Below, piece after piece: positions 5,966-52,144 of a DNA stretch of 64,000 nucleotides. The notes beneath the pieces are model-generated. The model did not search any database. It worked only from the letters and a program-made list of their open reading frames with translations, and had not been told where the DNA came from. The stretch's first letter is position 1. Every line of letters starts with the position of its first letter. The translations under genes and the position numbers were made by a program. The stretch is from sequence record OV876907. The stretch is one strand, 5' to 3'. Origin of the DNA: Escherichia phage UGJNEcP3.

Positions 5966-5984
5966 TATCTGTTCCTCAAGTGAA

Positions 5985-6020: not shown

Positions 6021-6025
6021 ATTGC

Positions 6026-6526
6026 TTAAATCTTATCTTTACCGATTTCAATACACTGTTCTATTGCCGCCGGTACTTTGGTCTTGAGCTTATCGATTTG
6101 TTTCTTATAATCACGAGCTTTACCGAAGCTCTCGGTTTCGAGCATTTCGTAATAACGAGCCTCGTGGATGGAAATCTGTAGATTGATATGGTTTACGCAC
6201 ATCGCATACAGTTTCTGCTTTTTGTACAAATCATCTTGGCGCTTCATTTCTGCCTGGTGTTTGGCTAGTACCGCTTCACGCTTAGACTCTTGTTCACGTT
6301 GGAATTCGATTTCCCTTTGAGCATATTTTGCACAGTTATTACCACATTGATTATTAGCTCGGGTATACACAAGTCCAGAACCGGCACGGAATTTCATTTC
6401 GCCATCGAATTGTTTCTGTTCAGCTGCGATACGAGCTTTACCAACTTCATCGGCTGAAACTGCATCACCATATTGGACCGCACAACCTGATAGGAGCATA
6501 CTCATTGCGATAATTAACTTTTTCAT
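6026..6526 (-). CDS. Putative lipoprotein
   Basis: 166 aa; N-terminus MKKLIIAMSMLLSGC is a signal peptide with lipobox; SD GAGGAT upstream. Confidence 0.65.
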   Translation of the reverse strand: MKKLIIAMSMLLSGCAVQYGDAVSADEVGKARIAAEQKQFDGEMKFRAGSGLVYTRANNQCGNNCAKYAQREIEFQREQESKREAVLAKHQAEMKRQDDLYKKQKLYAMCVNHINLQISIHEARYYEMLETESFGKARDYKKQIDKLKTKVPAAIEQCIEIGKDKI

Positions 6527-15681: not shown

Positions 15682-15931
15682 CGTTATAAGCATCCTTGAT
15701 GCATGATTCAGCCATATGAATTAATGTTTCTGGAGTATCATCTACCATTACATTAAAGCTAAATTCTACAGCCCAATCGGTAGCAACATAAACTTTAATA
15801 AGCTCGCCGGTATCACGAGTGCTCACGGCTTCAAACCAGAACTTAATTGTACTAGGTTGACCATCATCATCAATAACTATACAGTCGTGTTCCAGTTCAA
15901 GTCCCGATTTTTTGAATTCATCTAAAGTCAT
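15668..15931 (-). CDS. Hypothetical protein between 47 and 46
   Basis: 87 aa ORF overlapping both neighbours by a few bases. Confidence 0.45.
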   Translation of the reverse strand: MTLDEFKKSGLELEHDCIVIDDDGQPSTIKFWFEAVSTRDTGELIKVYVATDWAVEFSFNVMVDDTPETLIHMAESCIKDAYNDEDF

Positions 15932-37557: not shown

Positions 37558-37857
37558 TTAGAAAGAACCAGAACCTCTAATTGTGTTCTGGCGACCTTTA
37601 TTTTCTAATTCGGAGTGGTCGATTTCATATGCTTGTGCTACGCCAAAGGCCTTTTTAACTTTAGCTAAAGAACCTTTAGATGTAACAATATTAAAAGTAT
37701 TACCTTTGGTAAAATCAACAAAATCGACTTGTACGCCCTGTTTACCGAGGCTTGCTACAATAGCATCAACATATTCTTGGTCTAAATTGCCTTGAACTCC
37801 AATTTGAAATGCTTTAGGAGCTTTGGCTTCTGTGATAAATTCTTGATAAGTTTTCAT
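37558..37857 (-). CDS. Internal-protein-like head protein with capsid targeting sequence
   Basis: N-terminus MKTYQEFITEA matches the T4 IP capsid-targeting sequence (cleaved after Glu by the prohead protease). Confidence 0.7.
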   Translation of the reverse strand: MKTYQEFITEAKAPKAFQIGVQGNLDQEYVDAIVASLGKQGVQVDFVDFTKGNTFNIVTSKGSLAKVKKAFGVAQAYEIDHSELENKGRQNTIRGSGSF

Positions 37858-37900
37858 TGTTATTCCTTAAGTTGATAGAAGTATTCTATCACGGATTTAA

Positions 37901-38317
37901 TTAAGCGTAAATAGCCTTGCCATAATGTTTGTACCAGGTAGGACGCTGTGCAATTTTTTCATCCAAACGGGTCTGAGATATAGCAATAGAAGCTTCGTGT
38001 GGAGTATAGTCACCACGGAATTCCTGAGGAATGTCACTAATGTCCTGGACAGTAGTGTCCTTGATATTAAAACCACGTTTTAAACATTCGGCTATAAGCT
38101 CAATTTGTCGCTTACGTAAAAATTCAAGCTTATCGTAAAAGAATGTAACATGGCCTGTGCCAAGGATAAAAGTAGGACTGATTTTGAAATCACGGACACG
38201 TTTACCATTAGCAACATGCTTACGAACTGCACCGAAAACACGTGGTAATTCACGGTACTCGGCCATTAAGTGTTGGTCAGCCAATTCAGATACTAAGGTA
38301 AGGTTGATACGAGTCAT
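37901..38317 (-). CDS. denV: Endonuclease V, pyrimidine-dimer DNA glycosylase
   Basis: Start trimmed to [34 protein letters not shown]; essentially identical to T4 DenV as recalled. Confidence 0.97.
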
Positions 38318-38377
38318 TTTAGTGTTCTCCATGTTTGTATGAGAACACTATATCACAACTATCGTAAAAATAAACCG

Positions 38378-38680
38378 TTATTTACCTTTAATTGCTTTAG
38401 CTGCTTCGGTAGCCGCTTGCTGAAGGTCATCCATAGACATACCGAATTTAGAAGCAAAGTTATCAATTTTCTTTTCGACAGAATTCAAAGGCTTGGCCTG
38501 TTTACCTTCATTAGCGCCAGGGAGAGCGAGAATACGCTCTTTCTCAATATAAAGGCTTACAAGTTTCTTACGGTCTTTATCTGGCAAATCATGAAATGAA
38601 TGGGCCTTTTTATTTACGGCGGCTTCTAATTTACCTGCAGTTACGCGGGCTTCAGTGATAAATTCTTGATAGGTTTTCAT
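38378..38680 (-). CDS. Internal-protein-like head protein with capsid targeting sequence
   Basis: N-terminus MKTYQEFITEA. Confidence 0.7.
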   Translation of the reverse strand: MKTYQEFITEARVTAGKLEAAVNKKAHSFHDLPDKDRKKLVSLYIEKERILALPGANEGKQAKPLNSVEKKIDNFASKFGMSMDDLQQAATEAAKAIKGK

Positions 38681-38721
38681 ATGTTTCCTTTAAAGGTAAA
38701 TAGGTCTAAGTAATCTCTTTA

Positions 38722-39318
38722 TTAATTACCACGGGCTGCATTAGCAACGGCGTAAGCGTACTGAATATTAGCGTCTTTAAACGTACCTTTAGAGGTATCT
38801 ATTTCTGCCTTAAAGCCGCCTTTAGCCATAACATCAGCAAATTCTTTACGGAAAGTCATTGCATCAAGACCTTTCCATGTTGATTTGTGCTTGGCAAATT
38901 CAAGACCAGCGAAGTTAACTGCTTTAGCCAATTTATTATCAATAGTCCATTTACCTGCTTTAGGTACAAATACCGGACCTTTCTGTTTAGAGAACAGTTT
39001 TAAATTCCAGCGACGAAGGTCACCGTCAGCTTTAACAAAAGCTGCGTCCAAGTTACTAGCAACAACATCTTGGATATGGGCAAATTTAAGTCCATCAGCT
39101 TCAATATTTAGGTCGTTACGCCAGCGAAGTCCTTCCCAGGCGAAAGCTTTAAAGTCGGAAGCTTTTGTAGCCAAGTACCGTTCAATAGGAGCTGTTTTAG
39201 CGTCAAAACCGTTTCCTGGGTTGTCAACGCCGTTTCCTTTGTAAGTCCACTCATCTTTATTAATGCCTTGGACCTTTCCTACAGAAGCTTCGGCGATAAA
39301 TTCTTTATACGTTTTCAT
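38722..39318 (-). CDS. Internal-protein-like head protein with capsid targeting sequence
   Basis: N-terminus MKTYKEFIAEA. Confidence 0.7.
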   Translation of the reverse strand: MKTYKEFIAEASVGKVQGINKDEWTYKGNGVDNPGNGFDAKTAPIERYLATKASDFKAFAWEGLRWRNDLNIEADGLKFAHIQDVVASNLDAAFVKADGDLRRWNLKLFSKQKGPVFVPKAGKWTIDNKLAKAVNFAGLEFAKHKSTWKGLDAMTFRKEFADVMAKGGFKAEIDTSKGTFKDANIQYAYAVANAARGN

Positions 39319-39400
39319 ACGGGTTCCTTAAAGGTAAATATTTTAATTGGTCTGTTCAAGTAACTGTAGATATACTATCACAATTCTAGGAGATGTAAAC

Positions 39401-39799
39401 TTATTTGTAGGTTTTCATCCAATTCTTGAACAAAGCCGCGACGTCTTTCTCTTTAACGTTCAGTTTAACATCCAACATTTTACCACCCGCTGCTCTTGTT
39501 TGGCGAATCTTAGCAGTACCGGTTTCGCCATTCCACTCAACATAATACTGTCCAGTGTTCATTGCAATACCATCGCCGTAGTCTTCGTTTTTAGAAGTGG
39601 TGAAGGCCAGCTTCATAGTCTTAGAGACACGAGCCTGCATGCCTGTCTGAAGAGCATTACGAACGCGAATAACCTGAGGAGTGGCCTGGGTCAGGTTCTC
39701 ATTCAGTTCTTCAGTGAACTCTTCAGATTCAAACATAGCCAAAAGTTCTTTAGATGCAGGAATTACATTCTCTGCGATAAATTCATTATAAGTTTTCAT
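39401..39799 (-). CDS. Internal-protein-like head protein with capsid targeting sequence
   Basis: N-terminus [11 protein letters not shown]. Confidence 0.7.
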
Positions 39800-40280
39800 A
39801 TGCTTTCCAAGTACCTGTTTTAAATGTAGAAATCACGCGCTTAGCACGATTAGGAGTTTGTCTATACCAACGAGATTGGGCCAGGTTAACTGCCGCATCG
39901 TCCCAACGTTTCTGTTGGAGCATACGTAAAGAGTTAGTGAACCCGGCTACACCTGCTTCACCCATCTGGAAGACCATGTTAATTAAAGCACAACGACGAA
40001 CTTCGTCTAATACATCATAAACAGGTTTCAATTTAGGATTACGCAGAATAGCTCTACGAGCATTTTCAACCGATCGATTAAAGAGTTGCTCGGCTTCAGC
40101 CATAGTAATACGACCATTACAAACTCGGCCCATAAGCTTATCAAGTTCAGCACGAGCAACATCTTTAGATGGGTTCTTGGTAACTAACTGGCCAATACCA
40201 ATAGTCCAATAACCTTCGGTGTCTTTATAAAGATTTAAATCAAGACCTTCGTCTTGACGCAACATATCAAAAATATCCAT
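39786..40280 (-). CDS. e: Endolysin (T4 lysozyme)
   Basis: 164 aa; DEGL...[13 protein letters not shown]...[30 protein letters not shown] closely matches T4 lysozyme. Confidence 0.95.
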
Positions 40281-40284
40281 AATA

Positions 40285-40310
40285 CCTCCTGAGTATAGGA
40301 GGTATTTATA
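40285..40310 (-). promoter_or_regulatory. Late promoter TATAAATA plus SD-sequestering hairpin upstream of gene e
   Basis: Minus strand TATAAATA (about 40303-40310) then CCTCC-TATACTCA-GGAGG hairpin whose 3' arm is the Shine-Dalgarno of e. Confidence 0.65.
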
Positions 40311-40760
40311 TCAAAAGAGCGAATCTAAAACCTTAAACATCGACGGGCCCATGACATATTCCCATTGCGGACGTTTAATCAAGGCAAAAGCATCAAATTC
40401 AGGAATAGTACGACCATCAGGGAACGTATGGTAAGCTGTACATTTGCAATCCTTGAACTGCTCGTGTTCCACAGGCACTGTATATAAGAACAGATGTAGA
40501 TTCTTATTGCTTGAATATTTGAACTCACCTAGGTCTTTCAGGAATGCAGGATCGTATGCTGTGAATCCAATCTCTTCTTCGGTTTCGCGCATTGCCGCTT
40601 GAATAGGCTCTTCGCCTGGTTCGACATGACCCTTAGGAATGTCCCATTTATGACGCATGTTCTCTGGATTACGAGAGCCTGTTACACGGCCCATGACCAG
40701 TTCTTTATCAACGGTCATGAATAAAATACCTGCCGATAATTCCTTAGCTTTCTTACTCAT
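40311..40760 (-). CDS. nudE: Nudix hydrolase NudE
   Basis: Start trimmed to MSKKAKELS; Nudix box GHVEPGEEPIQAAMRETEEEIGF. Confidence 0.85.
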   Translation of the reverse strand: MSKKAKELSAGILFMTVDKELVMGRVTGSRNPENMRHKWDIPKGHVEPGEEPIQAAMRETEEEIGFTAYDPAFLKDLGEFKYSSNKNLHLFLYTVPVEHEQFKDCKCTAYHTFPDGRTIPEFDAFALIKRPQWEYVMGPSMFKVLDSLF

Positions 40761-40989
40761 CGTCTCGTTCCCATGATTGTTTAAAGATATCTCGTATAAT
40801 AATTTCAACACATGTTTCTGTTGACGGGCTTTCACTATCAGATATTTGGACCATATAATCAGAAATAGGTCGGAACATATCCAAGTCACTTTCTAAATCT
40901 TCTTTGATTTTCTCTTCTGATGTTCCGGTGTCATAGGAATACAGATAAGAATCACATGACTCAGATTTAATATAAATTGCAATACTCAT
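40753..40989 (-). CDS. Hypothetical acidic protein
   Basis: 78 aa ORF. Confidence 0.45.
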   Translation of the reverse strand: MSIAIYIKSESCDSYLYSYDTGTSEEKIKEDLESDLDMFRPISDYMVQISDSESPSTETCVEIIIRDIFKQSWERDDE

Positions 40990-41573
40990 TTACGGCATTC
41001 CTTAATAAAAGAGTTTAATGTATTTTTCTTAGTGATATCGTCATATACCTTTTTAACTTTAGAAATACGAAAAGGTACTTCGATAACAGAGGTCCATAAA
41101 AATGATGCGATAAGACCTAAGATAGCAGCAGACATCGCTGAAGCGAATACACAAATAGGCAGGTCATTATCTGTTGTCAGGAAAAACCCTAGGAGTGGGA
41201 AAAATAATATACCCATCCAAACATAGAATCTAGAACTCACCAATTTGTCGTATTCATCACTCCATGCACGGAAGCCGTATTTTTTGCTATAACAAATCAA
41301 TGGGTCTGGAGTCTGTTCTTTATGTGGTTCCGCTTGCCAGCCGTTTACGATATAGCCCATTTTATATTCCTCAATTAAAAGCTGTTTCATTTCGGCAGTA
41401 CAACCTGACCAATCTATTGTACTGGCTGAAATTCCTTCATCGCCGTCATCGATATTTCGCCAGGACTTTTTAATAATCATAGTCTCACCACTTGGGATAA
41501 TAATTCCAGCATTTTCCGACCGACGGATGAAGTTTGTGTCAATACCCATACAACCGGGTTCATAAAGGGCCAT
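40986..41573 (-). CDS. Hypothetical membrane protein (FIKEC C-terminal family)
   Basis: 195 aa, TM helices, C-terminus LNSFIKECRK. Confidence 0.5.
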   Translation of the reverse strand: MALYEPGCMGIDTNFIRRSENAGIIIPSGETMIIKKSWRNIDDGDEGISASTIDWSGCTAEMKQLLIEEYKMGYIVNGWQAEPHKEQTPDPLICYSKKYGFRAWSDEYDKLVSSRFYVWMGILFFPLLGFFLTTDNDLPICVFASAMSAAILGLIASFLWTSVIEVPFRISKVKKVYDDITKKNTLNSFIKECRK

Positions 41574-42262
41574 TACCAGCCCTCCATAGGGAATTCCAGA
41601 TATACTTGAGCATTAACGCGGATTTCATTTGTAATCTTTTTAACACGGTCTGTATTACGAGACACACGACCAAACCAGCGCCACCCGTTACTTACTGCAC
41701 GAGAACCTGTATGCCATGTCTGCCAATCAAACTGGAGCAACGTGCGGTCAGGAGCATCCCACTTGGTTAATTCATTGGACTCAATTTTTTCCAGAACTTC
41801 TTTATGCCACTGGCGATAGATAAGTTCGCCTTCAGGAATCTGACTAAATTGAGCAGTTCCGGTTGCAAAATGAGTAGGACACACATCAGCGTTAACAAGA
41901 CCAAGAATATGTTCAGAATGGTATCGAGGATTATCATAATCAGGTTGCCCTGCGGTAATAAAGTGTTGACCCACCGGAATATCCGGGCGTGGTACATCAT
42001 CATGGTGGAAGCCTGGAATTGCAGGGTACCAGCCAGGCATTAACATATGTACACGGGAATCAAATACAATATCAGGGCCACATTGCCAATCTTCAGGCAG
42101 GTTTTCAATAAAGCTACGAGTAATAGGACCGCCGTGTTTATGAGCAAAATAAGCATCGCAATTAAAGAACATAGGCTCATTTTTAATCATATCATTATTG
42201 ATATCTTGAGCAAAACCACCGACTGCACGAGCTTGAGAATTAAAAGTTTTCGGGCCGTTCAT
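41573..42262 (-). CDS. Hypothetical protein
   Basis: 229 aa ORF, His/Asp-rich; function not recognised. Confidence 0.55.
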   Translation of the reverse strand: MNGPKTFNSQARAVGGFAQDINNDMIKNEPMFFNCDAYFAHKHGGPITRSFIENLPEDWQCGPDIVFDSRVHMLMPGWYPAIPGFHHDDVPRPDIPVGQHFITAGQPDYDNPRYHSEHILGLVNADVCPTHFATGTAQFSQIPEGELIYRQWHKEVLEKIESNELTKWDAPDRTLLQFDWQTWHTGSRAVSNGWRWFGRVSRNTDRVKKITNEIRVNAQVYLEFPMEGW

Positions 42263-42276
42263 AATATTTTCCTCAA

Positions 42277-42567
42277 TTACTTTTTGTTGAAAAAGTACAT
42301 TTTACCTTTAGGAGATAAGGATACACGAAGTGCGTTACCAATACCAACTGAACATTTAACCAGGTCAGCAGATTTCAATTCACCAAATGCTTGACGAAGG
42401 TCACCGTCACGAGTGTTAACCATCAGACATTTAGCACCAGCTGCACGAACTTCGTTTAACATGTTGATTGCTTGGTTAGAAAGTTTCATTTTATTCTCCA
42501 TTTCACTCTGTTGTTTTGATAGGTCTATAGTATCACACCTATAGACCTTGTATACTGTTTTATGCAA
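42277..42567 (-). CDS. Hypothetical protein
   Basis: 96 aa ORF. Confidence 0.45.
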   Translation of the reverse strand: MHKTVYKVYRCDTIDLSKQQSEMENKMKLSNQAINMLNEVRAAGAKCLMVNTRDGDLRQAFGELKSADLVKCSVGIGNALRVSLSPKGKMYFFNKK

Positions 42568-43605
42568 TTATTTTTCGAAAGGACGAATTAAATGATGGTT
42601 ATCTTGGAACCGCTTGATGTAGTCATTTTCACCTAGGGTCTTATACATGTTCACTACCGAGTTATAATTCTCGTATGCGTATTCGCGGAACCAACCTGAA
42701 GTGATTGAGGTGCACACTTTCTCAAGAGCCATATAGAAACTTAATGACGGCGAAATATTAAAGTCATTAGGAACCTGTGAACGTTCTAGTGCCAGGACAC
42801 AAGTTTCTTCATACACACCGGCCAATTTAATAGCTTCAGGCAAAGCTTCAAACTTCTCACGAGAGGTCATGACTTCAGAACCATCCTTCATATAAAAGGT
42901 ATATGCAGGGCGCCCTGCCAATGCTACTGCTTCGTGGATGGAGTCATGGTCCAGCGTATAAATGGTATCATTAAAGAATGATGATTTGTTAACGTCTAAT
43001 TTAGGGTGAGAATAGCTCAACGTTTCTTTTTGACGTTGCAACATAATTTCCTGGAGTTCTTCGTTCAGGGTCACGCCTTTATTACGAAGGTATTTGATGT
43101 GGGACATAGTTTTCAAGAAGAACGGATTATTCTTAAGGAAACGATGAGAGGTTTTGATAGCCAGACAGATATCAGGGGTTGCCCAATAGAAACCTGTAAG
43201 ACGGTCCTTTTTAATATGATTTTCAGCATATTTCAGGAGACGATAGCTTGAGGTGTAGTCTTCATCTTGGAGCTCACCGGTAATTTCTCGTACATTAGTC
43301 AGGGCACGGACGATATAAGCTTCGAAATAGGTTTCTTTACCATTATGCATACATTTGAAAGCCTGAACATCAGGATTGTCAACGTGTACATGGGCGCCGA
43401 ACATCCGAGCTTTAAAGTGGTTCCATGAGCCTTGGTCGGCAATGAAATCCCAATCAGAATTTTCGATATACTTATTTTCAATCAGACCTGCGTGGTGCAG
43501 TGCACGAGAACCAATAACTAGCATCATAATATTTTCCTCAGTAAACTTAAATTTCGGCAACGTAAGTATTATGTAATTCCCACATATCATTGGAATTACT
43601 CTCAA
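42568..43605 (-). CDS. Hypothetical protein, possible nucleotidyltransferase fold
   Basis: 345 aa; GSRALHHAG...SDWDF weakly fits G-S-x(n)-D-x-D; start uncertain. Confidence 0.5.
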   Translation of the reverse strand: MRVIPMICGNYIILTLPKFKFTEENIMMLVIGSRALHHAGLIENKYIENSDWDFIADQGSWNHFKARMFGAHVHVDNPDVQAFKCMHNGKETYFEAYIVRALTNVREITGELQDEDYTSSYRLLKYAENHIKKDRLTGFYWATPDICLAIKTSHRFLKNNPFFLKTMSHIKYLRNKGVTLNEELQEIMLQRQKETLSYSHPKLDVNKSSFFNDTIYTLDHDSIHEAVALAGRPAYTFYMKDGSEVMTSREKFEALPEAIKLAGVYEETCVLALERSQVPNDFNISPSLSFYMALEKVCTSITSGWFREYAYENYNSVVNMYKTLGENDYIKRFQDNHHLIRPFEK

Positions 43606-43786
43606 CGATAGGAATTATCTCATTAGAGATTTCTTCTGCATAAGGGTCATTGATACAGTGAGCATCTTCAAAACGAACACCGTAATCAGACTTCTTATAA
43701 GAGAAGCCATAAATCTTTTTAAACTTGGCACGAGTAATGCGTACCGGTTCATTAGACTTATCGGACATCGGGGCGTAATACCACAT
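43547..43786 (-). CDS. Hypothetical protein
   Basis: 79 aa ORF. Confidence 0.4.
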   Translation of the reverse strand: MWYYAPMSDKSNEPVRITRAKFKKIYGFSYKKSDYGVRFEDAHCINDPYAEEISNEIIPIVESNSNDMWELHNTYVAEI

Positions 43787-43829
43787 ATGTACTCCTCATG
43801 TTTGTGTAAGGTAATAGTAACACGTATTT

Positions 43830-44180
43830 TTAGAGTTGTACATCACTTCTGCAATATTCTAAAAATAATTTATCGTTGTCTACTGTATCCCAACGACGCC
43901 AAGATGGATTCCAGACCAGAGCGTTGTCACCACAATCATTGAGCTTAAAATGGTCGTAGTACATAGCTATATGTCTAGTTTCGTCACCAGAGAACCCCAG
44001 TATAGGCTCACCATGGGTGTGATACATATGATGGTGCATTGAGAGGTCGCATTTGTAAAACATCTCACGTTTACCACGAACGAACAAGAAGGCCTGTCCA
44101 TTCATATAGAATTCTTTATTTGTTTTCAAAAGATATTTGAATACTGAATCTTTATGCATAAGTCCTCCTACCACATCCAT
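43830..44180 (-). CDS. Hypothetical protein
   Basis: 116 aa ORF. Confidence 0.45.
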   Translation of the reverse strand: MDVVGGLMHKDSVFKYLLKTNKEFYMNGQAFLFVRGKREMFYKCDLSMHHHMYHTHGEPILGFSGDETRHIAMYYDHFKLNDCGDNALVWNPSWRRWDTVDNDKLFLEYCRSDVQL

Positions 44181-44189
44181 GTGGTTAAA

Positions 44190-44417
44190 TTATTTTCCTA
44201 ACGAAACACGAGTAGGTTTTTTACCAAAATAGTCTTCGTAAGAACCATCTAAACGGCCTGCTTTAGACCGACAATACGAATCATACTTTTTGTAATAAGT
44301 CATCTCGGTATTATAACGTGGGTGTCTATCAGCCATAATAATACTTAGTGGCCAACCTTTGGCATAATCGCGAAGACCATTTATTTTACGAATGTATCGT
44401 TTTTTCAATTTTAGCAT
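44190..44417 (-). CDS. Hypothetical protein
   Basis: 75 aa ORF. Confidence 0.4.
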   Translation of the reverse strand: MLKLKKRYIRKINGLRDYAKGWPLSIIMADRHPRYNTEMTYYKKYDSYCRSKAGRLDGSYEDYFGKKPTRVSLGK

Positions 44418-44635
44418 GAGCTTGGGTACCAGATTTTACCATCGGCCTGAGCAACGAAGGTGCGACCAGCTTCTTCACCATAACAAGAGCTATTCAGCCA
44501 ATCTTCGAGACGAACTTCACCGTCATAATCATCGAGCTCAACACCGAAATCCTGGGCAGAAGCCATATCTTTTACTTTCTTATACAGTGCAGCCAGTTCA
44601 AGAGCAGCTTTTTCTAATTCATTAATATCAGACAT
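44411..44635 (-). CDS. Small protein, W-x-SS-x-x-C family member 1
   Basis: Trimmed to MSDINELEKAAL (SD AAGGAAA); ends KIWYPSSC. Confidence 0.5.
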   Translation of the reverse strand: MSDINELEKAALELAALYKKVKDMASAQDFGVELDDYDGEVRLEDWLNSSCYGEEAGRTFVAQADGKIWYPSSC

Positions 44636-44645
44636 TTTTATTTCC

Positions 44646-44858
44646 TTAGCAAGACATAGAAGAAGTAAACCAGAAACCATCACCATCAGGAATGCCGTAA
44701 TCATCACGGACCCATTCGTAATCATCATATTCCGGGTTCTTTGGAGAAATGTATTGTCCACGACCAGAAACATGGAACTCTTCACCTGTTTCGTCAGCCA
44801 CGGACTGGCCTTTACGTACTAATTCACGGATTTGTTTTTCAATTTCATCAATAGTCAT
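44646..44858 (-). CDS. Small protein, W-x-SS-x-x-C family member 2
   Basis: 70 aa; ends GFWFTSSMSC; SD TAAGGTAA. Confidence 0.5.
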   Translation of the reverse strand: MTIDEIEKQIRELVRKGQSVADETGEEFHVSGRGQYISPKNPEYDDYEWVRDDYGIPDGDGFWFTSSMSC

Positions 44859-44867
44859 TTTATTACC

Positions 44868-45065
44868 TTAGCATTCGTAAGAGGAGGACACCCAAGAGGT
44901 ACCACTAATAGTAATACAACCGTTATAAAGCGTGATATGTCGTTCTAGGTCACGAACACCATCGATATAGATATCAGCTTCTTCGCGTTCTTCTTTACAA
45001 ATCTGGATAACGTTTTCAATAGCTGCGGCTGCAGTACGGATTGCACAATCTAGTTCACGAGACAT
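44868..45065 (-). CDS. Small protein, W-x-SS-x-x-C family member 3
   Basis: 65 aa; ends TSWVSSSYEC; SD TAAGGAA. Confidence 0.5.
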   Translation of the reverse strand: MSRELDCAIRTAAAAIENVIQICKEEREEADIYIDGVRDLERHITLYNGCITISGTSWVSSSYEC

Positions 45066-45074
45066 AATAATTCC

Positions 45075-45356
45075 TTAACATTCAGAAGAAGAGGATACCC
45101 ATCCACCATTTTCTAGGCTGGTAGTGTAATCATGTTGGTTTACAATAGCGTACTGAGCTTCACCGTATTCTTCCCAGTGGGCAAGGTCGGCTTTCAGGGC
45201 GCCAGGAGAATAATAGTCACCGCCCATACCGCGAGCAGGGTATATATTAAAATGAGTCTCATATTTGTTAGCAATTTCCTCAGCACGACGAATAGCTTTA
45301 TGAATATCATTTACTGCTTCAGCCAGCTCTTTATTTTTACGGTAATCATTCATCAT
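45075..45356 (-). CDS. Small protein, W-x-SS-x-x-C family member 4
   Basis: 93 aa; ends GGWVSSSSEC; SD TAAGGAAA. Confidence 0.5.
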   Translation of the reverse strand: MMNDYRKNKELAEAVNDIHKAIRRAEEIANKYETHFNIYPARGMGGDYYSPGALKADLAHWEEYGEAQYAIVNQHDYTTSLENGGWVSSSSEC

Positions 45357-45365
45357 AGAATTTCC

Positions 45366-45656
45366 TTAGCACATTGCTGAAGAGGAGACCCAAGCACCAA
45401 CTGTAACGACACCGTTTTCAACTTCACCGCCATTGTTTTCAATTTCATCTTTAAACCACTGGGAGCATTCATAACCGACAGGATAATATGTACGGCCTGA
45501 ACCATAATCACCGGTACCGAATTGAATACCGTACTTATCGGCAATAGCTTCGCATTCATGTTCGATGGTATCTACTTTATTCAGAAGAGCATAGATAGCC
45601 TTTTCTGCAGACAGCGCGCTGTTGTATTCAGGGATTTCAATTTCAATTTTATTCAT
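45366..45656 (-). CDS. Small protein, W-x-SS-x-x-C family member 5
   Basis: 96 aa; ends GAWVSSSAMC; SD TAAGGAA. Confidence 0.5.
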   Translation of the reverse strand: MNKIEIEIPEYNSALSAEKAIYALLNKVDTIEHECEAIADKYGIQFGTGDYGSGRTYYPVGYECSQWFKDEIENNGGEVENGVVTVGAWVSSSAMC

Positions 45657-46042
45657 GATTTACATTCCTTAATAAAGGTTTCAAGGTCATTACGTTTAGT
45701 TTGTTTTACATACTCATTATAATTAGCCATAGCTAAAGCATATCTCTTTTTACGTGGCTTGTTTATTTTATTAGTTTGGGCAATATCAAAGACCCATGGG
45801 ATAAAAAATCCTATTAAAGCCGGAACCCAAATCCACGCGAGGCTCATATCTTCAAACGGATGGCGAGGCATACCATTAATAATCCCACCGACAAGAAATC
45901 CAATTATCCCTGCAGTCATACTAGTAGCAATGCCGAGGAATAATGAAATAGAGATATCGTAATCTGCTAATGCGTAACCAGGGTCGGTTTTACTAGGCTT
46001 ATGCATTTTGAACCTCTTTAGCGTATTCGCGACATTCAGCAA
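45653..46042 (-). CDS. Hypothetical membrane protein (FIKEC C-terminal family)
   Basis: 129 aa, two TM helices, C-terminus LETFIKECKS. Confidence 0.5.
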   Translation of the reverse strand: MLNVANTLKRFKMHKPSKTDPGYALADYDISISLFLGIATSMTAGIIGFLVGGIINGMPRHPFEDMSLAWIWVPALIGFFIPWVFDIAQTNKINKPRKKRYALAMANYNEYVKQTKRNDLETFIKECKS

Positions 46043-46535
46043 TAAAACGATTAAGCTTACGTTGTTGTTTACGACTTTCTAATGTGTACTCATTAGACAA
46101 AATAATAAGCTCATCTTTATCGTAATTTTTAATATCAGAGTAAGATGGGCGACGGTCAACCATTCCAAATACATCACCATTTTCTAAAGCTACATAGCAT
46201 ACTAAATGGTAATCATCGTCTGCCATATTAAGAAGCACACAATCAGCGCTCTCGTTTAAAGAATATACTGAATAACGTAGTCCAGCGAATTCCACTCGTT
46301 GAATAGCCAGATTTACGTCAATAATTTCCAAAGCATCTTCAAAAGAAAGGTCTTCAGCTAAAGCAAAAATAAAAGGTAATTTGGTAGTATCGCCACGGCT
46401 AGATGTTCTGCTTAAGAAATCGTTTGAATAGCCTAGGTCTTGGCGAATTCTATAAAGAACTGAATTGGTTTCATGGGAAAGACCACTATTTTTAAACCAA
46501 TCAATATTTGATATCAGGTCGTCATATAAACTCAT
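45999..46535 (-). CDS. Hypothetical protein
   Basis: 178 aa; SD GGAGGAG; C-terminal region contains KLNRFIAEC. Confidence 0.5.
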   Translation of the reverse strand: MSLYDDLISNIDWFKNSGLSHETNSVLYRIRQDLGYSNDFLSRTSSRGDTTKLPFIFALAEDLSFEDALEIIDVNLAIQRVEFAGLRYSVYSLNESADCVLLNMADDDYHLVCYVALENGDVFGMVDRRPSYSDIKNYDKDELIILSNEYTLESRKQQRKLNRFIAECREYAKEVQNA

Positions 46536-46583
46536 AATATTCTCCTCTCCTCCAAATAGGGAGACCGAAGTCTCCCGGTAACA

Positions 46584-47177
46584 TTACTTAAGTGAATTAA
46601 TGTAGTCTTCGATATCAGCAGAAGTCGTATCCATTCCAACTTGCGGGCCTTTAAACGTTTCTACGCGCATCAGGGTGTCTTCGATATCAATCTTGGTCAG
46701 TGCAGCAATTTCAACAACATCGTCGGCAGTAGCAATACCAAGGGCAGCCATATTACGAGTTTCACGAATGTACTCAAGCTTAACCGCTAGTTCCTGGCGA
46801 GAGTCATCAAGTTCCTTGACCTTAAGCTTAATTTCATTACGCATTTCAACATAATCATCGGCTTTCTTACGAAGTTGAGTAGCCGTACGACGATAAAGGA
46901 GGCCGAGTTTAGCATGTACCTGGACATCGGCACCTTCTTTAATCAGTTTACGAATTTCGCGTTCTTTGGAACTAGCCAGTTGGTCCTTTTCGTTAGCGAG
47001 TTCACGAATACGTTTTTCTTCATTCACAGACTTAACATGGGCAGTCTGGAGCTCAGTGATTTTATCAATCAAGGTAGAAGCAGCTTTAGTATACTGGTCT
47101 TCAATTGACAGGTTCTGAGCCATTGCGGTACCCAGTTTAGAACGAATGAATTCAACGAGTTTCTTTAAAGTGTTCAT
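46584..47177 (-). CDS. Hypothetical coiled-coil protein
   Basis: 197 aa, heptad-rich, followed by a UUCG-loop hairpin. Confidence 0.55.
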
Positions 47178-47255
47178 AGTATTTCCTTCAGTTGGTTAAC
47201 GTTTTGTAATCCATGAGGACATTATACCCTGTCCTCTGAGGGTTGTAAACATTTT

Positions 47256-47654
47256 TTATTTCATTTTTGCGAGGCAAATTTCATTGGCTTCCCATTGAGC
47301 TTGCTTAATAATAGCTTTGGATACAGGAGCCCTTTGGCCATAAGTTTTTGACGTTGAGAGAACAATACATTTGTTTGCTTCATTATGCCAGCCCCATGAT
47401 TTTTCGCCATGGGTGCCTTTAACTACAGCTGACACCTCAACAGAGCAACCACCATCAGAAATCTTGGTTTCGACAATCCATTCATTTCTCTCAACAGCTT
47501 CAATTTCTAATCTAGTTTTTTCTTCATACATCGCGGCCCAATCAGTTTTTGCCAAGTTGAAAGTAAGAGCTTTCTCTAATTCTTTGGCATATTTTTGTTG
47601 TTCAGGTGTTAATGAATTATACAACTCTTGCATTTCTTTATCTTCGATATTCAT
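47256..47654 (-). CDS. Hypothetical protein
   Basis: 132 aa ORF; promoter cassette upstream. Confidence 0.5.
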   Translation of the reverse strand: MNIEDKEMQELYNSLTPEQQKYAKELEKALTFNLAKTDWAAMYEEKTRLEIEAVERNEWIVETKISDGGCSVEVSAVVKGTHGEKSWGWHNEANKCIVLSTSKTYGQRAPVSKAIIKQAQWEANEICLAKMK

Positions 47655-47712
47655 TATGTTCTCCTCAAATTATGGGCTCATAATATCTTAATCATGAGCC
47701 CATGTAAACGTT

Positions 47713-47991
47713 TTATTTCATATTATTGAAATAATTTTCTGCATCAAAATCATTACCATGGTAAACTTTGGTAGACGATTTGGCGTAACCTTCAGCTGAG
47801 AACATATTAATCACAACTTTAATTGTATACCACTGTCCATCTTCATTACCCATTACTGCATAGGTTTCATACACCGGGTGTTCAGGACCGATAACTTTAA
47901 TATCGTTAACTGTAGCACCAAATTCTTCCGGAACACATTTCATAAAGAAATTAAACACTTCACCATAATTATCCATTTTACTCTCCTTCAC
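47713..47991 (-). CDS. Hypothetical protein
   Basis: 92 aa ORF. Confidence 0.45.
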   Translation of the reverse strand: MKESKMDNYGEVFNFFMKCVPEEFGATVNDIKVIGPEHPVYETYAVMGNEDGQWYTIKVVINMFSAEGYAKSSTKVYHGNDFDAENYFNNMK

Positions 47992-48065
47992 ACTGTTGTT
48001 TTGATAGGTCTATAGTATCATGTTCTACGAAAGAGTAAACATCTTTTTTAAACTTTTTAGAAACA

Positions 48066-48098
48066 AAAAAGGCCCAACCTTTCGGAAGGGCCTAGAAT
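48066..48098 (-). terminator. Intrinsic terminator (GAAA loop)
   Basis: Minus strand AGGCCC-TTCCGAAAGGTT-GGGCCT followed by TTTTTT, directly after the stop at 48098. Confidence 0.6.
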
Positions 48099-48673
48099 CA
48101 GTTCTTGTAGAACCGGAACGGGTTTACATGGAAGGCTAACATGGCCTTAGGGATTTTACGAGACAAAAGGCTCTTAAGCTTCCAACCACAGTACACGCGA
48201 AGGTAAAAGGTAATCCCACCAACCTTAAGATATGGAACTGAAGCAAATACACCCCAGGCGTCGTCATTCCACATCCATAACCACCCGTGATGAGCTTTAT
48301 CAGGAGAACCGGATTCAACGTCGGGATTACCACGATAATGGAATTCTGAGCTACAATCACGACCGAGTTTATGGTAAGCAAAGTTATAAGCTTTATTTCG
48401 CCATAGCCAAGCTACTCTCTGGAGATAAACACCACCTGGCATTTTCCTGATTTTAGCCCAACGTTTAATGTGACCTTTGTCACCGTCAATTGGATTATCG
48501 TATGTCATCATCCAATCAAAGCCATAAGGCAATTTACCGGTCTTTTTATTGTGGAAAGGAACTACAAAAGGCGCAAGGATAACAGCCAGAACCATAGAGA
48601 TAAAATCCAGTGGAACCAACAGAACCCAACTCAAATATTTTAAAAGTTTCATATATTTCTCTAATTTAACCAA
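48098..48673 (-). CDS. Hypothetical membrane protein
   Basis: 191 aa, N-terminal TM helix, Trp-rich; intrinsic terminator immediately downstream. Confidence 0.55.
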   Translation of the reverse strand: MVKLEKYMKLLKYLSWVLLVPLDFISMVLAVILAPFVVPFHNKKTGKLPYGFDWMMTYDNPIDGDKGHIKRWAKIRKMPGGVYLQRVAWLWRNKAYNFAYHKLGRDCSSEFHYRGNPDVESGSPDKAHHGWLWMWNDDAWGVFASVPYLKVGGITFYLRVYCGWKLKSLLSRKIPKAMLAFHVNPFRFYKN

Positions 48674-48696
48674 AAAAGCACCAGATGGGGCTTTCG

Positions 48697-49161
48697 TTAT
48701 TTGATTTGTTTAGCGGACCAGATACGGTCTTTGATGATTTTCTGAATATCTTCAACATACTCTAAGTCGTGAGCATGCGGATTATCTTTGAAGCTATGTG
48801 CTCGTGCCAGTTTCTGGCCTTCTGTTTTGATTACTAAAAGCTCTTTAAGAATTGCTTCATACTTAGAAATAATTCCTTTGGCGATATTTTTTTCTTGAGC
48901 GGCTTTAGGGTCCGCTTTTGTAGCAGGTGCTTTACCTGTAGCTTTCTGGAACAATTCACCTGATGCAGCTAGGCTTTTAAAAACTCGGCTAACAGTATTA
49001 GCATTAGTAAAACCTTCGGCTTTAAAATCTCTAATAAAACGGAAACGTTCTTCATCAGAGGCGTCTTTGTAAGAATATTTACCTGCTTGAATTGCTGCAA
49101 TCGCAGCGGCTTTTACATCTGAACTAGATTGTTCAGTCAAAAATTCATTGTAAGTTTTCAT
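48697..49161 (-). CDS. Internal-protein-like head protein with capsid targeting sequence
   Basis: N-terminus MKTYNEFLTEQ. Confidence 0.65.
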   Translation of the reverse strand: MKTYNEFLTEQSSSDVKAAAIAAIQAGKYSYKDASDEERFRFIRDFKAEGFTNANTVSRVFKSLAASGELFQKATGKAPATKADPKAAQEKNIAKGIISKYEAILKELLVIKTEGQKLARAHSFKDNPHAHDLEYVEDIQKIIKDRIWSAKQIK

Positions 49162-49202
49162 TATTATTTCCTAAGTTAATTAACTTATCTATTTATTATG
49201 CC

Positions 49203-49235
49203 AAAAAGCCCCAACCTTTCGGAAGGGGCTATGCC
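49203..49235 (-). terminator. Intrinsic terminator after the tRNA cluster (GAAA loop)
   Basis: Minus strand AGCCCC-TTCCGAAAGGTT-GGGGCT followed by TTTTT; core nearly identical to the terminator at 48066. Confidence 0.6.
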
Positions 49236-49282
49236 TTGCGGCAACCTTGTCGGGGTTCCACCTGCTAGGCAAGTGTTTGTAC

Positions 49283-49437
49283 GAAACGCCGGGATTCGAA
49301 CCCGGTTATTAAGTAGTTGACGCTACTCAATATTTTTAAAAGGCCATATCTCGACCATATCCGAACGTTCCGTCAAAAACGCTACTCGGCTTACGGCAAA
49401 GATATTTCCTCGAATCGATAATTCGGTGCGCCGTTTC
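49283..49437 (-). ncRNA. tRNA-like or small stable RNA element (not a canonical tRNA)
   Basis: Contains a perfect T-arm CCGGG-TTCGAAT-CCCGG at about 49291-49307 but I could not fold a standard cloverleaf of normal length around it. Confidence 0.3.
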
Positions 49438-49611
49438 TGCTGTGATGTAAGGGGGCGTTAACAGATCGTAAAGATTTGTTAATGCCAGTCCTTACTCAGG
49501 GAACATCAGTCCGACGACTTACCGGTAGCGACCCGGTTTCTTGTTTGTTGCGCCGGTGAATGCTGGTAATCAGTCTTCATACGACGGCTTGACTATATAA
49601 TAGTCTTCATT

Positions 49612-49686
49612 TGGTATCCCGCCCTGGGATCGAACCAGGACCGCAAACTTAGAAGGATCGTATGCTATCCATTACACCAGCGGGAC
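49612..49686 (-). tRNA. tRNA-Arg (anticodon UCU)
   Basis: 75 nt; manual cloverleaf with 7-bp acceptor stem, T-loop TTCGATC, anticodon loop CUUCUAA, CCA encoded. Confidence 0.8.
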
Positions 49687-49691
49687 ATAGT

Positions 49692-49769
49692 TGGTGACCC
49701 GGACCAGATTTGAACTGGTAACCTTTCCCTTATGAGGGGACTGCTGCTAACCAATTGAGCTACAGGGCC
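49692..49769 (-). tRNA. tRNA with anticodon CAU (Met, or Ile if lysidinylated)
   Basis: 78 nt; acceptor GGCCCUG pairs with CCGGGUC, T-arm CCAG-UUCAAAU-CUGG, anticodon loop CUCAUAA, CCA encoded. Confidence 0.75.
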
Positions 49770-49774
49770 TTAAT

Positions 49775-50047
49775 TTAAATTACAAATCCAGCAGGAGCAT
49801 TATCATCTTTAGCCATGTGCTGAATTGTATGATAAGTCATTTCTTCAGGAGCAACCAGATAAGCCGCAACGTTAACTAGTGGAATTATTTTTGGTTTAGC
49901 GAACGTGCTATCAGAAATTGCCATAAAGGGCTCGCCATCGGTCTCAACTTCACCAAATTGGCATTCATATGAAATAGAACAACGTTTGGTAGTTGTTGTC
50001 TTGGTTTTAGGGTCATAAAAAGCTAATTTCAATACTAACATAAACAC
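49775..50047 (-). CDS. Hypothetical protein
   Basis: 90 aa ORF. Confidence 0.4.
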   Translation of the reverse strand: MFMLVLKLAFYDPKTKTTTTKRCSISYECQFGEVETDGEPFMAISDSTFAKPKIIPLVNVAAYLVAPEEMTYHTIQHMAKDDNAPAGFVI

Positions 50048-50170
50048 CTCAAATAAAATTAAGTAAAGTAAGTTTTATTAATAGACCTTGTCTATTATGA
50101 AAGGTTCTTTGAGGGAAGAACCTTTGGTAATAGAGGGTATTAATGATAGAGTAATAATATCACATAATTC

Positions 50171-50656
50171 TTAAAGCATATTAAGTGCTTTAACACTAGG
50201 TATTTGGATTTCTTCTTCAACGATGTACAGCTTAACATAAGAAATTACACGGATGAAATCGCCATCATATTCACAAGCCATACCAAGGAGCTCAGTAAGA
50301 GCTTCATTCAAGTAGTATGCTTCTTCATCGTCATTCAACAAGGCTTCTAAGTCTTGAATACCTAGGACCTTATCTAAAAATTCCGGAGTCAACTGGCCCG
50401 ATTTTACACCAGATTCAATGTGAGCAATAACCAAATGCTTAACTACGCCCCAGTCTTCGTTACCACATTTATCCGGGCTGTTACAATGCGAACCATGGAA
50501 AAGTTCTAAGATATATTTGTACTGTTGGATTTCCTGTTCTTCTACACCAAATACAGTCTGGGTTTTATAGTTATCACCATCATTTTCCCAGGTTTCGATT
50601 TCAAGAACATAACCTTTAGGAATAACTTGTCCAAATTTAATATTCATTGCGGCCAC
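50171..50656 (-). CDS. Hypothetical protein
   Basis: 161 aa ORF. Confidence 0.5.
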   Translation of the reverse strand: MAAMNIKFGQVIPKGYVLEIETWENDGDNYKTQTVFGVEEQEIQQYKYILELFHGSHCNSPDKCGNEDWGVVKHLVIAHIESGVKSGQLTPEFLDKVLGIQDLEALLNDDEEAYYLNEALTELLGMACEYDGDFIRVISYVKLYIVEEEIQIPSVKALNML

Positions 50657-50934
50657 ATATTAATGTAATCAAGTTTAATAGAAGCAATCTTCAAAGGATT
50701 TTTAAAGATGTCGTATTCGATCAATCCATTTTCAGTTGCGGTATAAAAAGTAAAGTTAACAGAATTATAACGATGGCTGTTAACTTTGAGTTTAACATCG
50801 CTTGAACTACGGCCAATATTAACCTGTTGAACATCAAGCACAGCATCTTTGCCGTAATTTCGAATCAACAACTCGGCTGCAACCTGGTCTGAATTATAGC
50901 CGTTCTCCGGATTAGTAACCTTAACGTATAGCAT
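50644..50934 (-). CDS. Hypothetical protein
   Basis: 96 aa ORF. Confidence 0.45.
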   Translation of the reverse strand: MLYVKVTNPENGYNSDQVAAELLIRNYGKDAVLDVQQVNIGRSSSDVKLKVNSHRYNSVNFTFYTATENGLIEYDIFKNPLKIASIKLDYINMWPQ

Positions 50935-51363
50935 TTAACCCTCGTCTACAATAGTGTGGGTATTGGCATTAACAATTTGCCACCAGTCAAAACGATTGGA
51001 CCCATATTGAGGTGTATTCTCGTTTTCTTTAATGATATCACGTAGTTCATCTTCAGTAGCAGCTTTTGCGATTAAGTCGGCATAGCCGCCGCGAGGATAA
51101 TAGTTATCACCTGCGAAAAGTAAAAAGTTTGGTTTGATATTATTGAACTCTTCAAGAGTAATAACCGTTCCGTTTGGTTGAACAATATCTACATAACTAT
51201 ATCCTAATTTCTGAGCTTCGGAAACCGCTTCAAGCAGGGTATCATGGGCCCATCCAATTTGACAATCGGGTTTTTCGGATGGATTAGCTTGGTAGTCCGC
51301 ATACACTTTATACATTTTACTCACCTTTAGAGATTTTATCCATAACAAAAGAGATTGAACCAA
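50935..51363 (-). CDS. Hypothetical protein
   Basis: 142 aa ORF. Confidence 0.5.
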   Translation of the reverse strand: MVQSLLLWIKSLKVSKMYKVYADYQANPSEKPDCQIGWAHDTLLEAVSEAQKLGYSYVDIVQPNGTVITLEEFNNIKPNFLLFAGDNYYPRGGYADLIAKAATEDELRDIIKENENTPQYGSNRFDWWQIVNANTHTIVDEG

Positions 51364-51514
51364 TTAAAAATGCCACTACTAAAGAGATTATATTCTCGGA
51401 AGTTGAAAGCATATCGAGCATGAATCCTGCAAACATACTAAAGCCAAAAGCAGTAACGGCGGCCAGTGCAGTAACATTTCTAATTAATTCACAACGTTTC
51501 ATTTTATTCTCCAA
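51317..51514 (-). CDS. Hypothetical membrane protein
   Basis: 65 aa, two hydrophobic segments. Confidence 0.4.
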   Translation of the reverse strand: MENKMKRCELIRNVTALAAVTAFGFSMFAGFMLDMLSTSENIISLVVAFLIGSISFVMDKISKGE

Positions 51515-51570
51515 TCACTCATTTGTTTTGATAGGGCTATAGTATCATCACTAGAGCCCGTTGTAAACAA

Positions 51571-51843
51571 TTATTTTAGATAAATTGCATACTTTTTATA
51601 ACCAGCCGTTTCGTGACGCAGTCCTTTTTCATTAGCAAAACGTTCAATATTGTTAATTTGATTCTGGTCGAGTTCTGAAGTATCAAAAACAAAAAAGTTT
51701 CGCTTATTGCCTAAAGTTACGTGATTAGTCAAATCAATGTTATAGAGATGATTTATATTATCAATCATAGTCTTAACAGATTTGTTAATTTTTACTTCTT
51801 CATTAAGAATAGATTCAGCGATAAATTCTTGGTATGATTTCAT
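51571..51843 (-). CDS. Internal-protein-like head protein with capsid targeting sequence
   Basis: N-terminus MKSYQEFIAES. Confidence 0.65.
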   Translation of the reverse strand: MKSYQEFIAESILNEEVKINKSVKTMIDNINHLYNIDLTNHVTLGNKRNFFVFDTSELDQNQINNIERFANEKGLRHETAGYKKYAIYLK

Positions 51844-51844
51844 T

Positions 51845-52066
51845 TTATTCTACGCCCGCGGCTTTCAAAAGTTTTTTAAGATTGGCAGTGCCTTGAGCAG
51901 AAAATGTGACCTTGCCGCCTTTTTCGCTGATGCTCCCAGTCAATTTAGCAAGTTTATCACTAGAGACTTTTTTAAAATCAGCCAATGTACCGTCAAAGGT
52001 TTTTGTAACAACCGGCAGTTGGTCATGTTTTTTAGCTTCTGTAATAAATTCTTGATAAGCTTTCAT
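51845..52066 (-). CDS. Internal-protein-like head protein with capsid targeting sequence
   Basis: N-terminus MKAYQEFITEA. Confidence 0.65.
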   Translation of the reverse strand: MKAYQEFITEAKKHDQLPVVTKTFDGTLADFKKVSSDKLAKLTGSISEKGGKVTFSAQGTANLKKLLKAAGVE

Positions 52067-52144
52067 TTTGATTTCCGTTTGGTTAGTTTGTTTTGATAGG
52101 TCTATAGTATCACGCCTATAGACCTTGTAAACACCTTTTTTAAA

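Follow-up and report, generated by a model that had tools for sequence, protein, structure and literature searches.

Escherichia phage UGJNEcP3 carries seven genes, here called ipA to ipG, whose products all begin with the ten-residue leader of the phage T4 internal proteins. They lie between positions 37,558 and 52,066 of a 64,000-nucleotide (nt) stretch of its DNA (sequence record OV876907), to which we refer as the window. We put the probability at about 0.85 that these genes encode seven T4-type internal proteins (Ips) of a JS98-like Dhakavirus, which are packaged by means of the leader, cleaved by the protease gp21, injected as what is probably anti-defence cargo, and swapped between phages as cassettes. 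The packaging, cleavage, injection and anti-defence targets of the seven proteins we infer by comparison with T4. A reading of this DNA made from the sequence alone (the sequence-only reading) had claimed seven open reading frames (ORFs) beginning MK(T/S/A)Y(Q/N/K)EF(I/L)(T/A)E, and all seven are present where it had placed them, on the minus strand. In the list below, aa stands for amino acids and pI for isoelectric point.

ipA, 37558..37857, minus strand: 99 aa, Ip7 family, leader MKTYQEFITE; predicted mature product 89 aa, 9.5 kDa, pI 9.0
ipB, 38378..38680, minus strand: orthologue of T4 IPII (Ip2), 100 aa; predicted mature product 9.8 kDa, pI 9.7
ipC, 38722..39318, minus strand: orthologue of T4 IPIII (Ip3), 198 aa; predicted mature product 20.7 kDa, pI 9.5
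ipD, 39401..39799, minus strand: 132 aa, leader-bearing, 'hypothetical' in every record listed
ipE, 48697..49161, minus strand: 154 aa, leader MKTYNEFLTE, beside the tRNA genes on their e.8 side, called 'hypothetical' in each listed record
ipF, 51571..51843, minus strand: 90 aa, Ip9 family, at the T4 ipI locus, leader MKSYQEFIAE
ipG, 51845..52066, minus strand: 73 aa, at the T4 ipI locus by 57B, leader MKAYQEFITE; predicted mature product 6.6 kDa, pI 9.9

Data for the rest of the genome were taken from phage UGJNEcP4 (OV877765.1, 170.6 kb, Dhakavirus, JS98 group), which is 100% identical over the window; a window coordinate equals the coordinate in that record minus 23228.

Occurrence and conservation of the leader

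A degenerate DNA pattern for the leader decapeptide has seven matches in the 64-kb window and none in 100 dinucleotide-preserving shuffles. The seven sites, all on the minus strand, are 37828-37857, 38651-38680, 39289-39318, 39770-39799, 49132-49161, 51814-51843 and 52037-52066. When the starts of all window ORFs of at least 40 aa were scored against the motif, seven scored 10/10; the next best score was 8/10, without Glu10. The other 106 kb of OV877765.1 contain no additional perfect leader and two near-matches (8/10) with Val replacing Phe7. We rejected every 8/10 candidate: MKRFEEYVAL at window position 21619, in which Phe7 or Glu10 is missing, and MKSFKEVMNE and MKTFKEVIQE at record positions 19453 and 115378, both with Val for Phe7, the second of them in an annotated DNA-helicase fragment.

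Tyr4, Glu6, Phe7, Ile/Leu8 and Glu10 are invariant in all seven leaders, and positions 3, 5 and 9 vary. Because Tyr4 (TAT/TAC) and Glu10 (GAA/GAG) are kept across synonymous codons, and Ile/Leu8 across different codons (ATC/ATT/TTG), selection appears to act on the peptide, beyond the DNA alone. The sequence-only reading likened the leader to those of T4 IPI, IPII and IPIII together. The likeness is to the IPII/IPIII type (MKTYQEFIAE) and does not extend as well to T4 IPI, whose own leader is more divergent (MKTFKEFTST...) and belongs to a 19-residue propeptide (MKTFKEFTSTTTPVSTITE).

A search of IMG/VR for the leader pattern found 129 ORFs that carry it, in at least 38 unrelated body families, with relatives of all seven window proteins among them. 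Several lie on small metagenome contigs and encode proteins of up to about 300 aa that are very basic (pI 10-11.6). A Pfam scan of eight larger leader-bearing proteins of viral contigs found no known domain, DUF7412 alone being matched, in one protein. Because the DUF7412 model begins with the leader itself, we regard the weak DUF7412 matches of ipB and ipG as leader signal and discounted them.

The seven proteins and their loci

Existing annotation agrees with this assignment for five of the seven genes, to which the deposited record gives an internal head or internal virion protein label; ipD and ipE are without such a label. The product of ipA matches PHROG 2667, 'internal head protein' (E = 7e-43), and is annotated as such in OV877765.1; in phage VR7, members of its cluster bear the name 'Ip7 putative internal head protein'. 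The ipF product matches PHROG 7673, also 'internal head protein' (E = 6.5e-56), and is called Ip9 in IME08, WG01 and MX01. For ipG the match is to PHROG 8765, 'internal virion protein' (E = 1.8e-24), the same annotation as in the deposited record. Two proteins are close orthologues of T4 proteins: ipB is 94% identical to T4 IPII (BLASTP, E = 3e-60; PHROG 7857), and ipC is 87% identical to T4 IPIII over its full length (E = 5e-127; PHROG 5341). A PDB sequence search with ipB found no solved structure, and none of the seven proteins had an above-threshold match in Pfam or NCBIfam.

Behind the leader, the proteins differ. Pairwise BLASTP of the leader-stripped sequences gave a best E value of 0.1, and at the profile level hhalign probabilities were at most 2.8% in all 28 pairs formed by the seven body families and mature T4 IPI*, which bears out the earlier claim that the bodies are mutually unrelated. 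Homology to Ip2 and Ip3 is confined to ipB and ipC; the other five bodies had no BLASTP match to T4 Ip1, Ip2 or Ip3 and hhalign probabilities of 2.8% or less. With residues 1-10 removed, all seven predicted products are small (6.6-20.7 kDa) and have a pI of 7.98-9.85, like the basic T4 internal proteins.

The order of the genes is that of T4: denV-ipII-ipIII-e-nudE, then the tRNA genes, then ipI-57B-57A-1. Six of the seven genes lie inside or flank the known ip loci (denV-e and trna.4-57B), and ipE is about 2.4 kb away, across the tRNA genes. The slot of ipA, between a vs.8-like gene and denV, is empty in T4. At the ipI locus, ipF starts 1 nt past the stop codon of ipG.

Packaging and processing

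The first ten residues of T4 IPIII are enough to direct a protein, even a foreign one, to the core of the prohead (PMC9026906, PMC3012670). Mutagenesis in T4 assigned residues 4 and 7 to targeting and residues 8 and 10 to processing by gp21, which cuts after Glu at L/I-X-E (PMC9026906). These critical residues (Tyr4, Phe7, Ile/Leu8 and Glu10) are kept in all seven leaders, and the positions that vary here (3, 5 and 9) are those that tolerate change in T4. The same genome encodes gp21 (Peptidase_S77, E = 8.6e-103) as well as gp22 (T4_CASP, E = 6e-90) and gp67 (GP67, E = 1.5e-17), located as follows.

gp21, gp22 and gp67 genes, record 104609-106772, outside the window: identified by the domain matches just given

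The sequence-only reading had proposed that the leader directs prohead targeting and is removed by gp21. At the level of sequence this proposal is supported by the key residues, by the gp21 and gp22/gp67 genes, and by the orthology of ipB and ipC to IPII and IPIII.

Some of the proteins have a second potential cleavage site nearby. In ipD it is L32-N33-E34, which is invariant in the family, follows a variable or deletable linker and lies in a part that is disordered in the AlphaFold2 (AF2) model; in ipF it is L13-N14-E15. VLNE or VLTE stands at the matching place in some ipE homologues and in alternative proteins of the ipE slot. By analogy with the 19-residue propeptide of T4 IPI (PMC9026906), ipD, ipF and similar proteins may be trimmed twice.

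We therefore have the following model in mind. Each Ip would start out as a precursor with the capsid-targeting sequence (CTS) as its first ten residues, and the CTS would bind it to the gp22/gp67/gp68 scaffolding core during prohead assembly. The gp21 protease would then cut after Glu10 at (I/L)-x-E, and perhaps again at L-N-E in ipD and ipF. The small basic mature proteins would stay in the head with the DNA, enter the cell along with it, and act ahead of any phage gene expression. As orthologues of Ip2 and Ip3, ipB and ipC would block distinct GmrSD type IV restriction enzymes, and the other five bodies (Ip7-like, Ip9-like, ipG, ipD and ipE) would most likely neutralize other early host defences in a similar way. 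The conserved 30 nt of leader DNA would provide the 5' homology through which phages exchange bodies.

The unlabelled families ipD and ipE

None of the homologues of ipD (n = 17) or ipE (n = 9) has a functional name or a Pfam domain. Where the source is named, it is a T4-like phage whose host is Escherichia, Klebsiella or Salmonella, or else an enterobacterial assembly. T4-like Escherichia and Klebsiella phages account for the ipD set; the ipE family is found in T4-like Escherichia, Salmonella and Shigella phages only. In the ipD family M1, K2, T3, Y4, E6, F7, I8 and E10 remain unchanged while identity in the body falls to 56%, and the ipD homologue of JS98 (gp114) occupies the ipII slot, between denV and ipIII. 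Because the leader is invariant despite the divergence of the body, and because the JS98 homologue sits in the ipII slot, we take ipD to be an internal-protein cassette. Database searches with ipD and ipE, which might have turned up leaderless relatives, found the leader kept in all ipD relatives; the list of ipE matches included some truncated forms and one chimera without the leader. On this sequence evidence, both gene families should be annotated as internal proteins.

Structure prediction added little. The AF2 model of ipD is of low confidence (predicted local distance difference test score, pLDDT, 56.5), with residues 1-35 disordered, and that of ipE is all-helical (pLDDT 73.7). Neither had a significant Foldseek match in the PDB (best E = 0.015 for ipD and 0.4 for ipE), and neither matched IPI*.

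The start codon of ipD lies inside the last codons of the lysozyme gene e (window 39786-39799, minus strand; ...GCA T ATG AAA ACT TAT AA...); the e product ends A-Y-E-N-L-stop. The T4 e protein has a similar tail, AYKNL. In JS98, e ends A-A-Y-R-stop, followed by a promoter and then ipIII. The arrangement in the window suggests that the ipD cassette was inserted at microhomology between the end of e and the leader. At its other end (window 39401-39418, minus strand), just before the ipIII promoter, proteins of the ipD family terminate in W-M-K-T-Y/H-K-stop (DNA ATGAAAACCTACAAATAA), which looks like what is left of a leader, joined to the cassette at its 3' end.

Upstream of ipE, window 49162-49611 is a 450-nt stretch without an annotated gene between ipE and tRNA-Arg, at the position of rnaC/rnaD in T4. 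A GC-rich hairpin followed by a T-run stands just upstream of ipE. An Rfam search of the ORF-free gap by ipE found two tRNAs only.

Exchange of cassettes among related phages

The number of leader-bearing genes in this region differs among relatives: seven in UGJNEcP4, five in JS98, eight in WG01, eight in AnYang and six in MX01, compared with three in T4. They occupy the following slots.

Slot vs.8-denV: ipA; an extra 119-aa or 85-aa gene in AnYang and WG01
Slot denV-e: ipII, ipIII and ipD in varying order
Slot by the tRNA genes, e.8 side: ipE in this phage and WG01; another leader-bearing protein of 202-205 aa in JS98 and AnYang; none in MX01
Slot trna.4-57B: Ip9, ipG, an Ip7-like 102-aa protein, and 69-aa and 97-aa proteins

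The ipB cassette (about 38321-38716) is missing from WG01 and is replaced by an ipD homologue in JS98. Similarly, ipG is present in WG01 and AnYang and absent in MX01 and JS98. The boundaries of these differences fall close to the leader. Compared with WG01, homology stops at window position 37828, the final leader nucleotide of ipA. Compared with JS98, which has ipD at this place, it stops at 38649, 32 nt into ipB. Homology of the ipD cassette begins 2 nt ahead of the ipD ATG. Because homology between genomes breaks at or near the 3' end or the start of the leader, we identify the leader-coding DNA as the 5' junction of the swaps. As judged from these sequence comparisons, the ip genes are shuffled cassettes, exchanged within Dhakavirus through the leader.

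An unannotated 650-nt gap between trna.4 and 57B in JS98 (NC_010105.1) contains a 97-aa ORF starting MKTYQEFIKE (about 15764-16054, minus strand). It is probably a missed ip gene.

Promoter-like sites

Sites resembling T4 early promoters stand upstream of three of the genes or gene pairs, and a late-promoter box lies near the cluster:

37883..37911, minus strand: T4-early-type promoter-like site upstream of ipA, TTTACG-17-TG-TAGAAT, a consensus match only
39372..39399, minus strand: T4-early-type promoter-like site upstream of ipC, TTTACA-16-TG-TAGTAT, near-identical to the sequence upstream of ipIII in T4 and JS98
52104..52131, minus strand: T4-early-type promoter-like site upstream of ipG/ipF, TTTACA-16-TG-TACTAT, resembling the sequence upstream of T4 ipI
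40303..40310, minus strand: late-promoter box TATAAATA upstream of e, the sole exact one near the cluster

The architecture GTTTAC...TGnTAnnnT is also found upstream of T4 ipI, ipII and ipIII. The late box upstream of e could drive late read-through into ipD, ipC and ipB.

Function after injection and alternative readings

The T4 proteins Ip1, Ip2 and Ip3 are inhibitors of GmrSD type IV restriction enzymes, each acting on a different one and none protecting against the targets of the others (Silas 2025, PMC12373910). Ip2 inhibits the ECOR21 GmrSD (BrxU type) and Ip3 the ECOR17 GmrS1/GmrSD2 pair (PMC12373910), and IPIII is active in the cytoplasm without the CTS (PMC9391042). Given their orthology to T4 Ip2 and Ip3, ipB and ipC can be expected to inhibit GmrSD enzymes as those proteins do. 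The earlier suggestion of a diverse injected cargo, probably directed against host defences, is thus supported: it is the published T-even model (PMC3012670, PMC9026906, PMC12373910), and two of the genes are orthologous to GmrSD inhibitors.

The same suggestion mentioned an unusual DNA modification, and this is plausible because the window holds a gene cluster of the modification type. Between a uvsX-like gene and the DNA polymerase gene, at about 1815-6526 (minus strand), it contains genes for a hypothetical protein, a thymidylate-synthase homologue, a thymidylate kinase, a phosphoheptose-isomerase-like protein, and hypothetical proteins of 557 and 166 aa. Clusters of that type have been linked to arabinosylated 5-hydroxycytosine in Dhakaviruses, and hypermodified DNA is targeted by defence glycosylases and type IV enzymes (PMC13326640).

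Several points weigh against our reading as a whole or in part. Where T4 IPII and IPIII have Ala or Ser next to Glu10, ipD has Asn and ipE has Gln, which may affect how efficiently these two are cleaved. Literature searches on Ip7, Ip9 or Dhakavirus yielded no virion proteomics or N-terminal data for the seven proteins. No exact TATAAATA box stands directly upstream of any ip gene, only early-type promoter-like boxes, and a generic promoter scan was no richer than in shuffles, so our promoter calls rest on likeness to T4 upstream regions. In the five non-T4 bodies no domain was detected, nor was there a fold match (PDB, ipD and ipE models) or a homologue of known function. The phage probably carries arabinosylated 5-hydroxycytosine and not glucosyl-hydroxymethylcytosine (glucosyl-hmC), which puts GmrSD attack on such DNA in question. 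Finally, when ten other ip genes were assayed against five further GmrSD systems, no new inhibitory pair was found (PMC12373910), so an anti-defence role for the five non-T4 bodies would follow by analogy, not homology.

One alternative we consider possible, if not probable: the five orphan Ips would be injected anti-defence proteins whose targets are not GmrSD enzymes but other type IV enzymes, glycosylases acting on glycosylated bases, BREX-like systems or possibly systems specific for arabinosyl-DNA. The modification-type cluster of the window (thymidylate-synthase homologue, kinase, sugar isomerase and 557-aa hypothetical protein; PMC13326640) would fit such targets, as would the attack of defence glycosylases and type IV enzymes on hypermodified DNA (PMC13326640) and the failure of ten more ip genes to give a fresh Ip-GmrSD pair (PMC12373910). 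However, the only three Ips with known targets all act on GmrSD, and near-identical Ip2 and Ip3 are retained here, which argues that GmrSD-type enzymes still matter to the phage.

We think it unlikely that some or all of the five non-T4 bodies are packaged to serve the virion, by neutralizing DNA charge, aiding packaging or ejection, or contributing to head morphogenesis. In favour of such a role, every mature product is basic (pI 8.0-9.9), the IPs of T4 bind to DNA when salt is low, phosphates of the DNA are contacted by internal-protein lysines, and IPIII mutants have head-assembly defects (PMC3012670, PMC9026906); the ten other Ips without GmrSD inhibition (PMC12373910) would also be accommodated. 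A generic structural job, however, would predict neither unrelated bodies nor differences in presence and absence among phages about 95% identical elsewhere, and all three T4 Ips, the basic IPII and IPIII too, proved to be specific GmrSD inhibitors (PMC12373910).

It is very improbable that the common 5' end is retained mainly for its role as DNA or RNA, in recombination or translation initiation, and that some of the ORFs, especially ipD and ipE, encode unpackaged, cytoplasmic early proteins: the homology breakpoints at the leader end, the early-type promoter-like boxes, the fusion of the ipD start into the 3' end of e and the unusual residues after Glu10 in ipD and ipE would suit such a module, but conservation is at the protein level (Tyr4 and Glu10 synonymous, Ile/Leu8 via ATC/ATT/TTG), the variable positions are exactly those dispensable in T4 mutagenesis (PMC9026906), in T4 ten residues alone package foreign proteins (PMC3012670, PMC9026906), and T4 ipI, ipII and ipIII share the promoter-like architecture yet are packaged.

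Small ORFs with a common C-terminal motif

Window 44411-45656 (minus strand) contains five consecutive ORFs (74, 70, 65, 93 and 96 aa) with a common C-terminal W-x-x-S-S-(x-x)-C. Their C-termini read IWYPSSC, FWFTSSMSC, SWVSSSYEC, GWVSSSSEC and AWVSSSAMC. All five are annotated as hypothetical and none has a Pfam match; from their sequences they look like a family of tandem paralogues.

Comparison with known systems

The seven-gene set is a correct recognition of an internal-protein system that is already known, and no new principle is involved. That diverse injected defence proteins share just a conserved CTS was stated by Rao & Black 2010, citing Repoila 1994 (PMC3012670), and Silas 2025 counted 'at least 10' Ips and proposed GmrSD variants as the targets of every accessory protein encoded at the ip loci (PMC12373910). 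What is added here is the annotation of ipD and ipE as internal proteins, an ip site (that of ipE) outside the two classical loci, and the exchange of cassettes with breakpoints at the leader.

The closest counterparts are T4 IPII and IPIII, which share with this phage the orthology of ipB and ipC, the same 10-residue leader, the denV-ipII-ipIII-e synteny and the promoter-like upstream sequence. They differ in setting, since this Dhakavirus is predicted to have arabinosylated 5-hydroxycytosine and T4 has glucosyl-hmC, and ipII is dispensable in Dhakavirus (missing in WG01, with ipD instead in JS98). T4 IPI/IPI* (Ip1, an inhibitor of GmrSD CT596) has the same packaging and processing logic, and ipF and ipG occupy the homologous trna.4-57B locus; unlike in T4, no body related to IPI* was found among the seven (BLASTP; hhalign, at most 1.4%; Foldseek with the ipD and ipE models).

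Alt of T4 is likewise packaged in the head, processed by gp21 and injected as an effector, but is an enzyme of about 700 aa without the MKTYQEF leader. Outside the window, at record 124074-130337 of OV877765.1, this phage has three tandem Alt-like ADP-ribosyltransferase paralogues (707, 681 and 695 aa), which are probably a second set of packaged, injected effectors. T4 has one alt gene.

The polymorphic Ips of T-even phages (Ip4-Ip12), in the accounts of Repoila 1994 given in PMC3012670 and PMC12373910, resemble the present set in having unrelated bodies, a conserved CTS and swapping at the ipI locus, and ipA and ipF are called Ip7 and Ip9 in related genomes. Here there are four slots, compared with two classical loci, and the ipD and ipE families have no Ip name in the records listed. 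As far as the available descriptions of it go, the Dar system of phage P1 (DarA, DarB, Hdf and others) also places proteins inside the head that are injected with the DNA and protect it from restriction (PMC12810830, PMC9024508); it differs in phage lineage, in its proteins and incorporation hierarchy, and in being directed at type I restriction.

Significance

More tentatively, the five non-T4 bodies could form a toolkit against defences that recognise DNA with arabinosylated 5-hydroxycytosine and, separately, the 30-nt leader could act as an integron-like recombination handle; we hold this idea to be rather doubtful at present. If it were true, the targets might be, for instance, GmrSD enzymes of new classes, type IV enzymes of other kinds or defence glycosylases, and the toolkit would consist of inhibitors without a characterized counterpart, including the never-annotated ipD and ipE, the latter at a third ip site. 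With such a handle, T4-like phages could plug any small protein into the injection route.

For the more probable reading, that the seven are T4-type internal proteins, the practical yield is a set of candidate anti-defence proteins from a phage with arabinosyl-type DNA: the Ip7-like and Ip9-like proteins, ipG, ipD and ipE. Injected Ips act before phage gene expression and therefore help to decide whether a T4-like phage survives the first-line nucleases of its host. For this reason they matter for the host range of T4-like phages and for the choice of phages for therapy.

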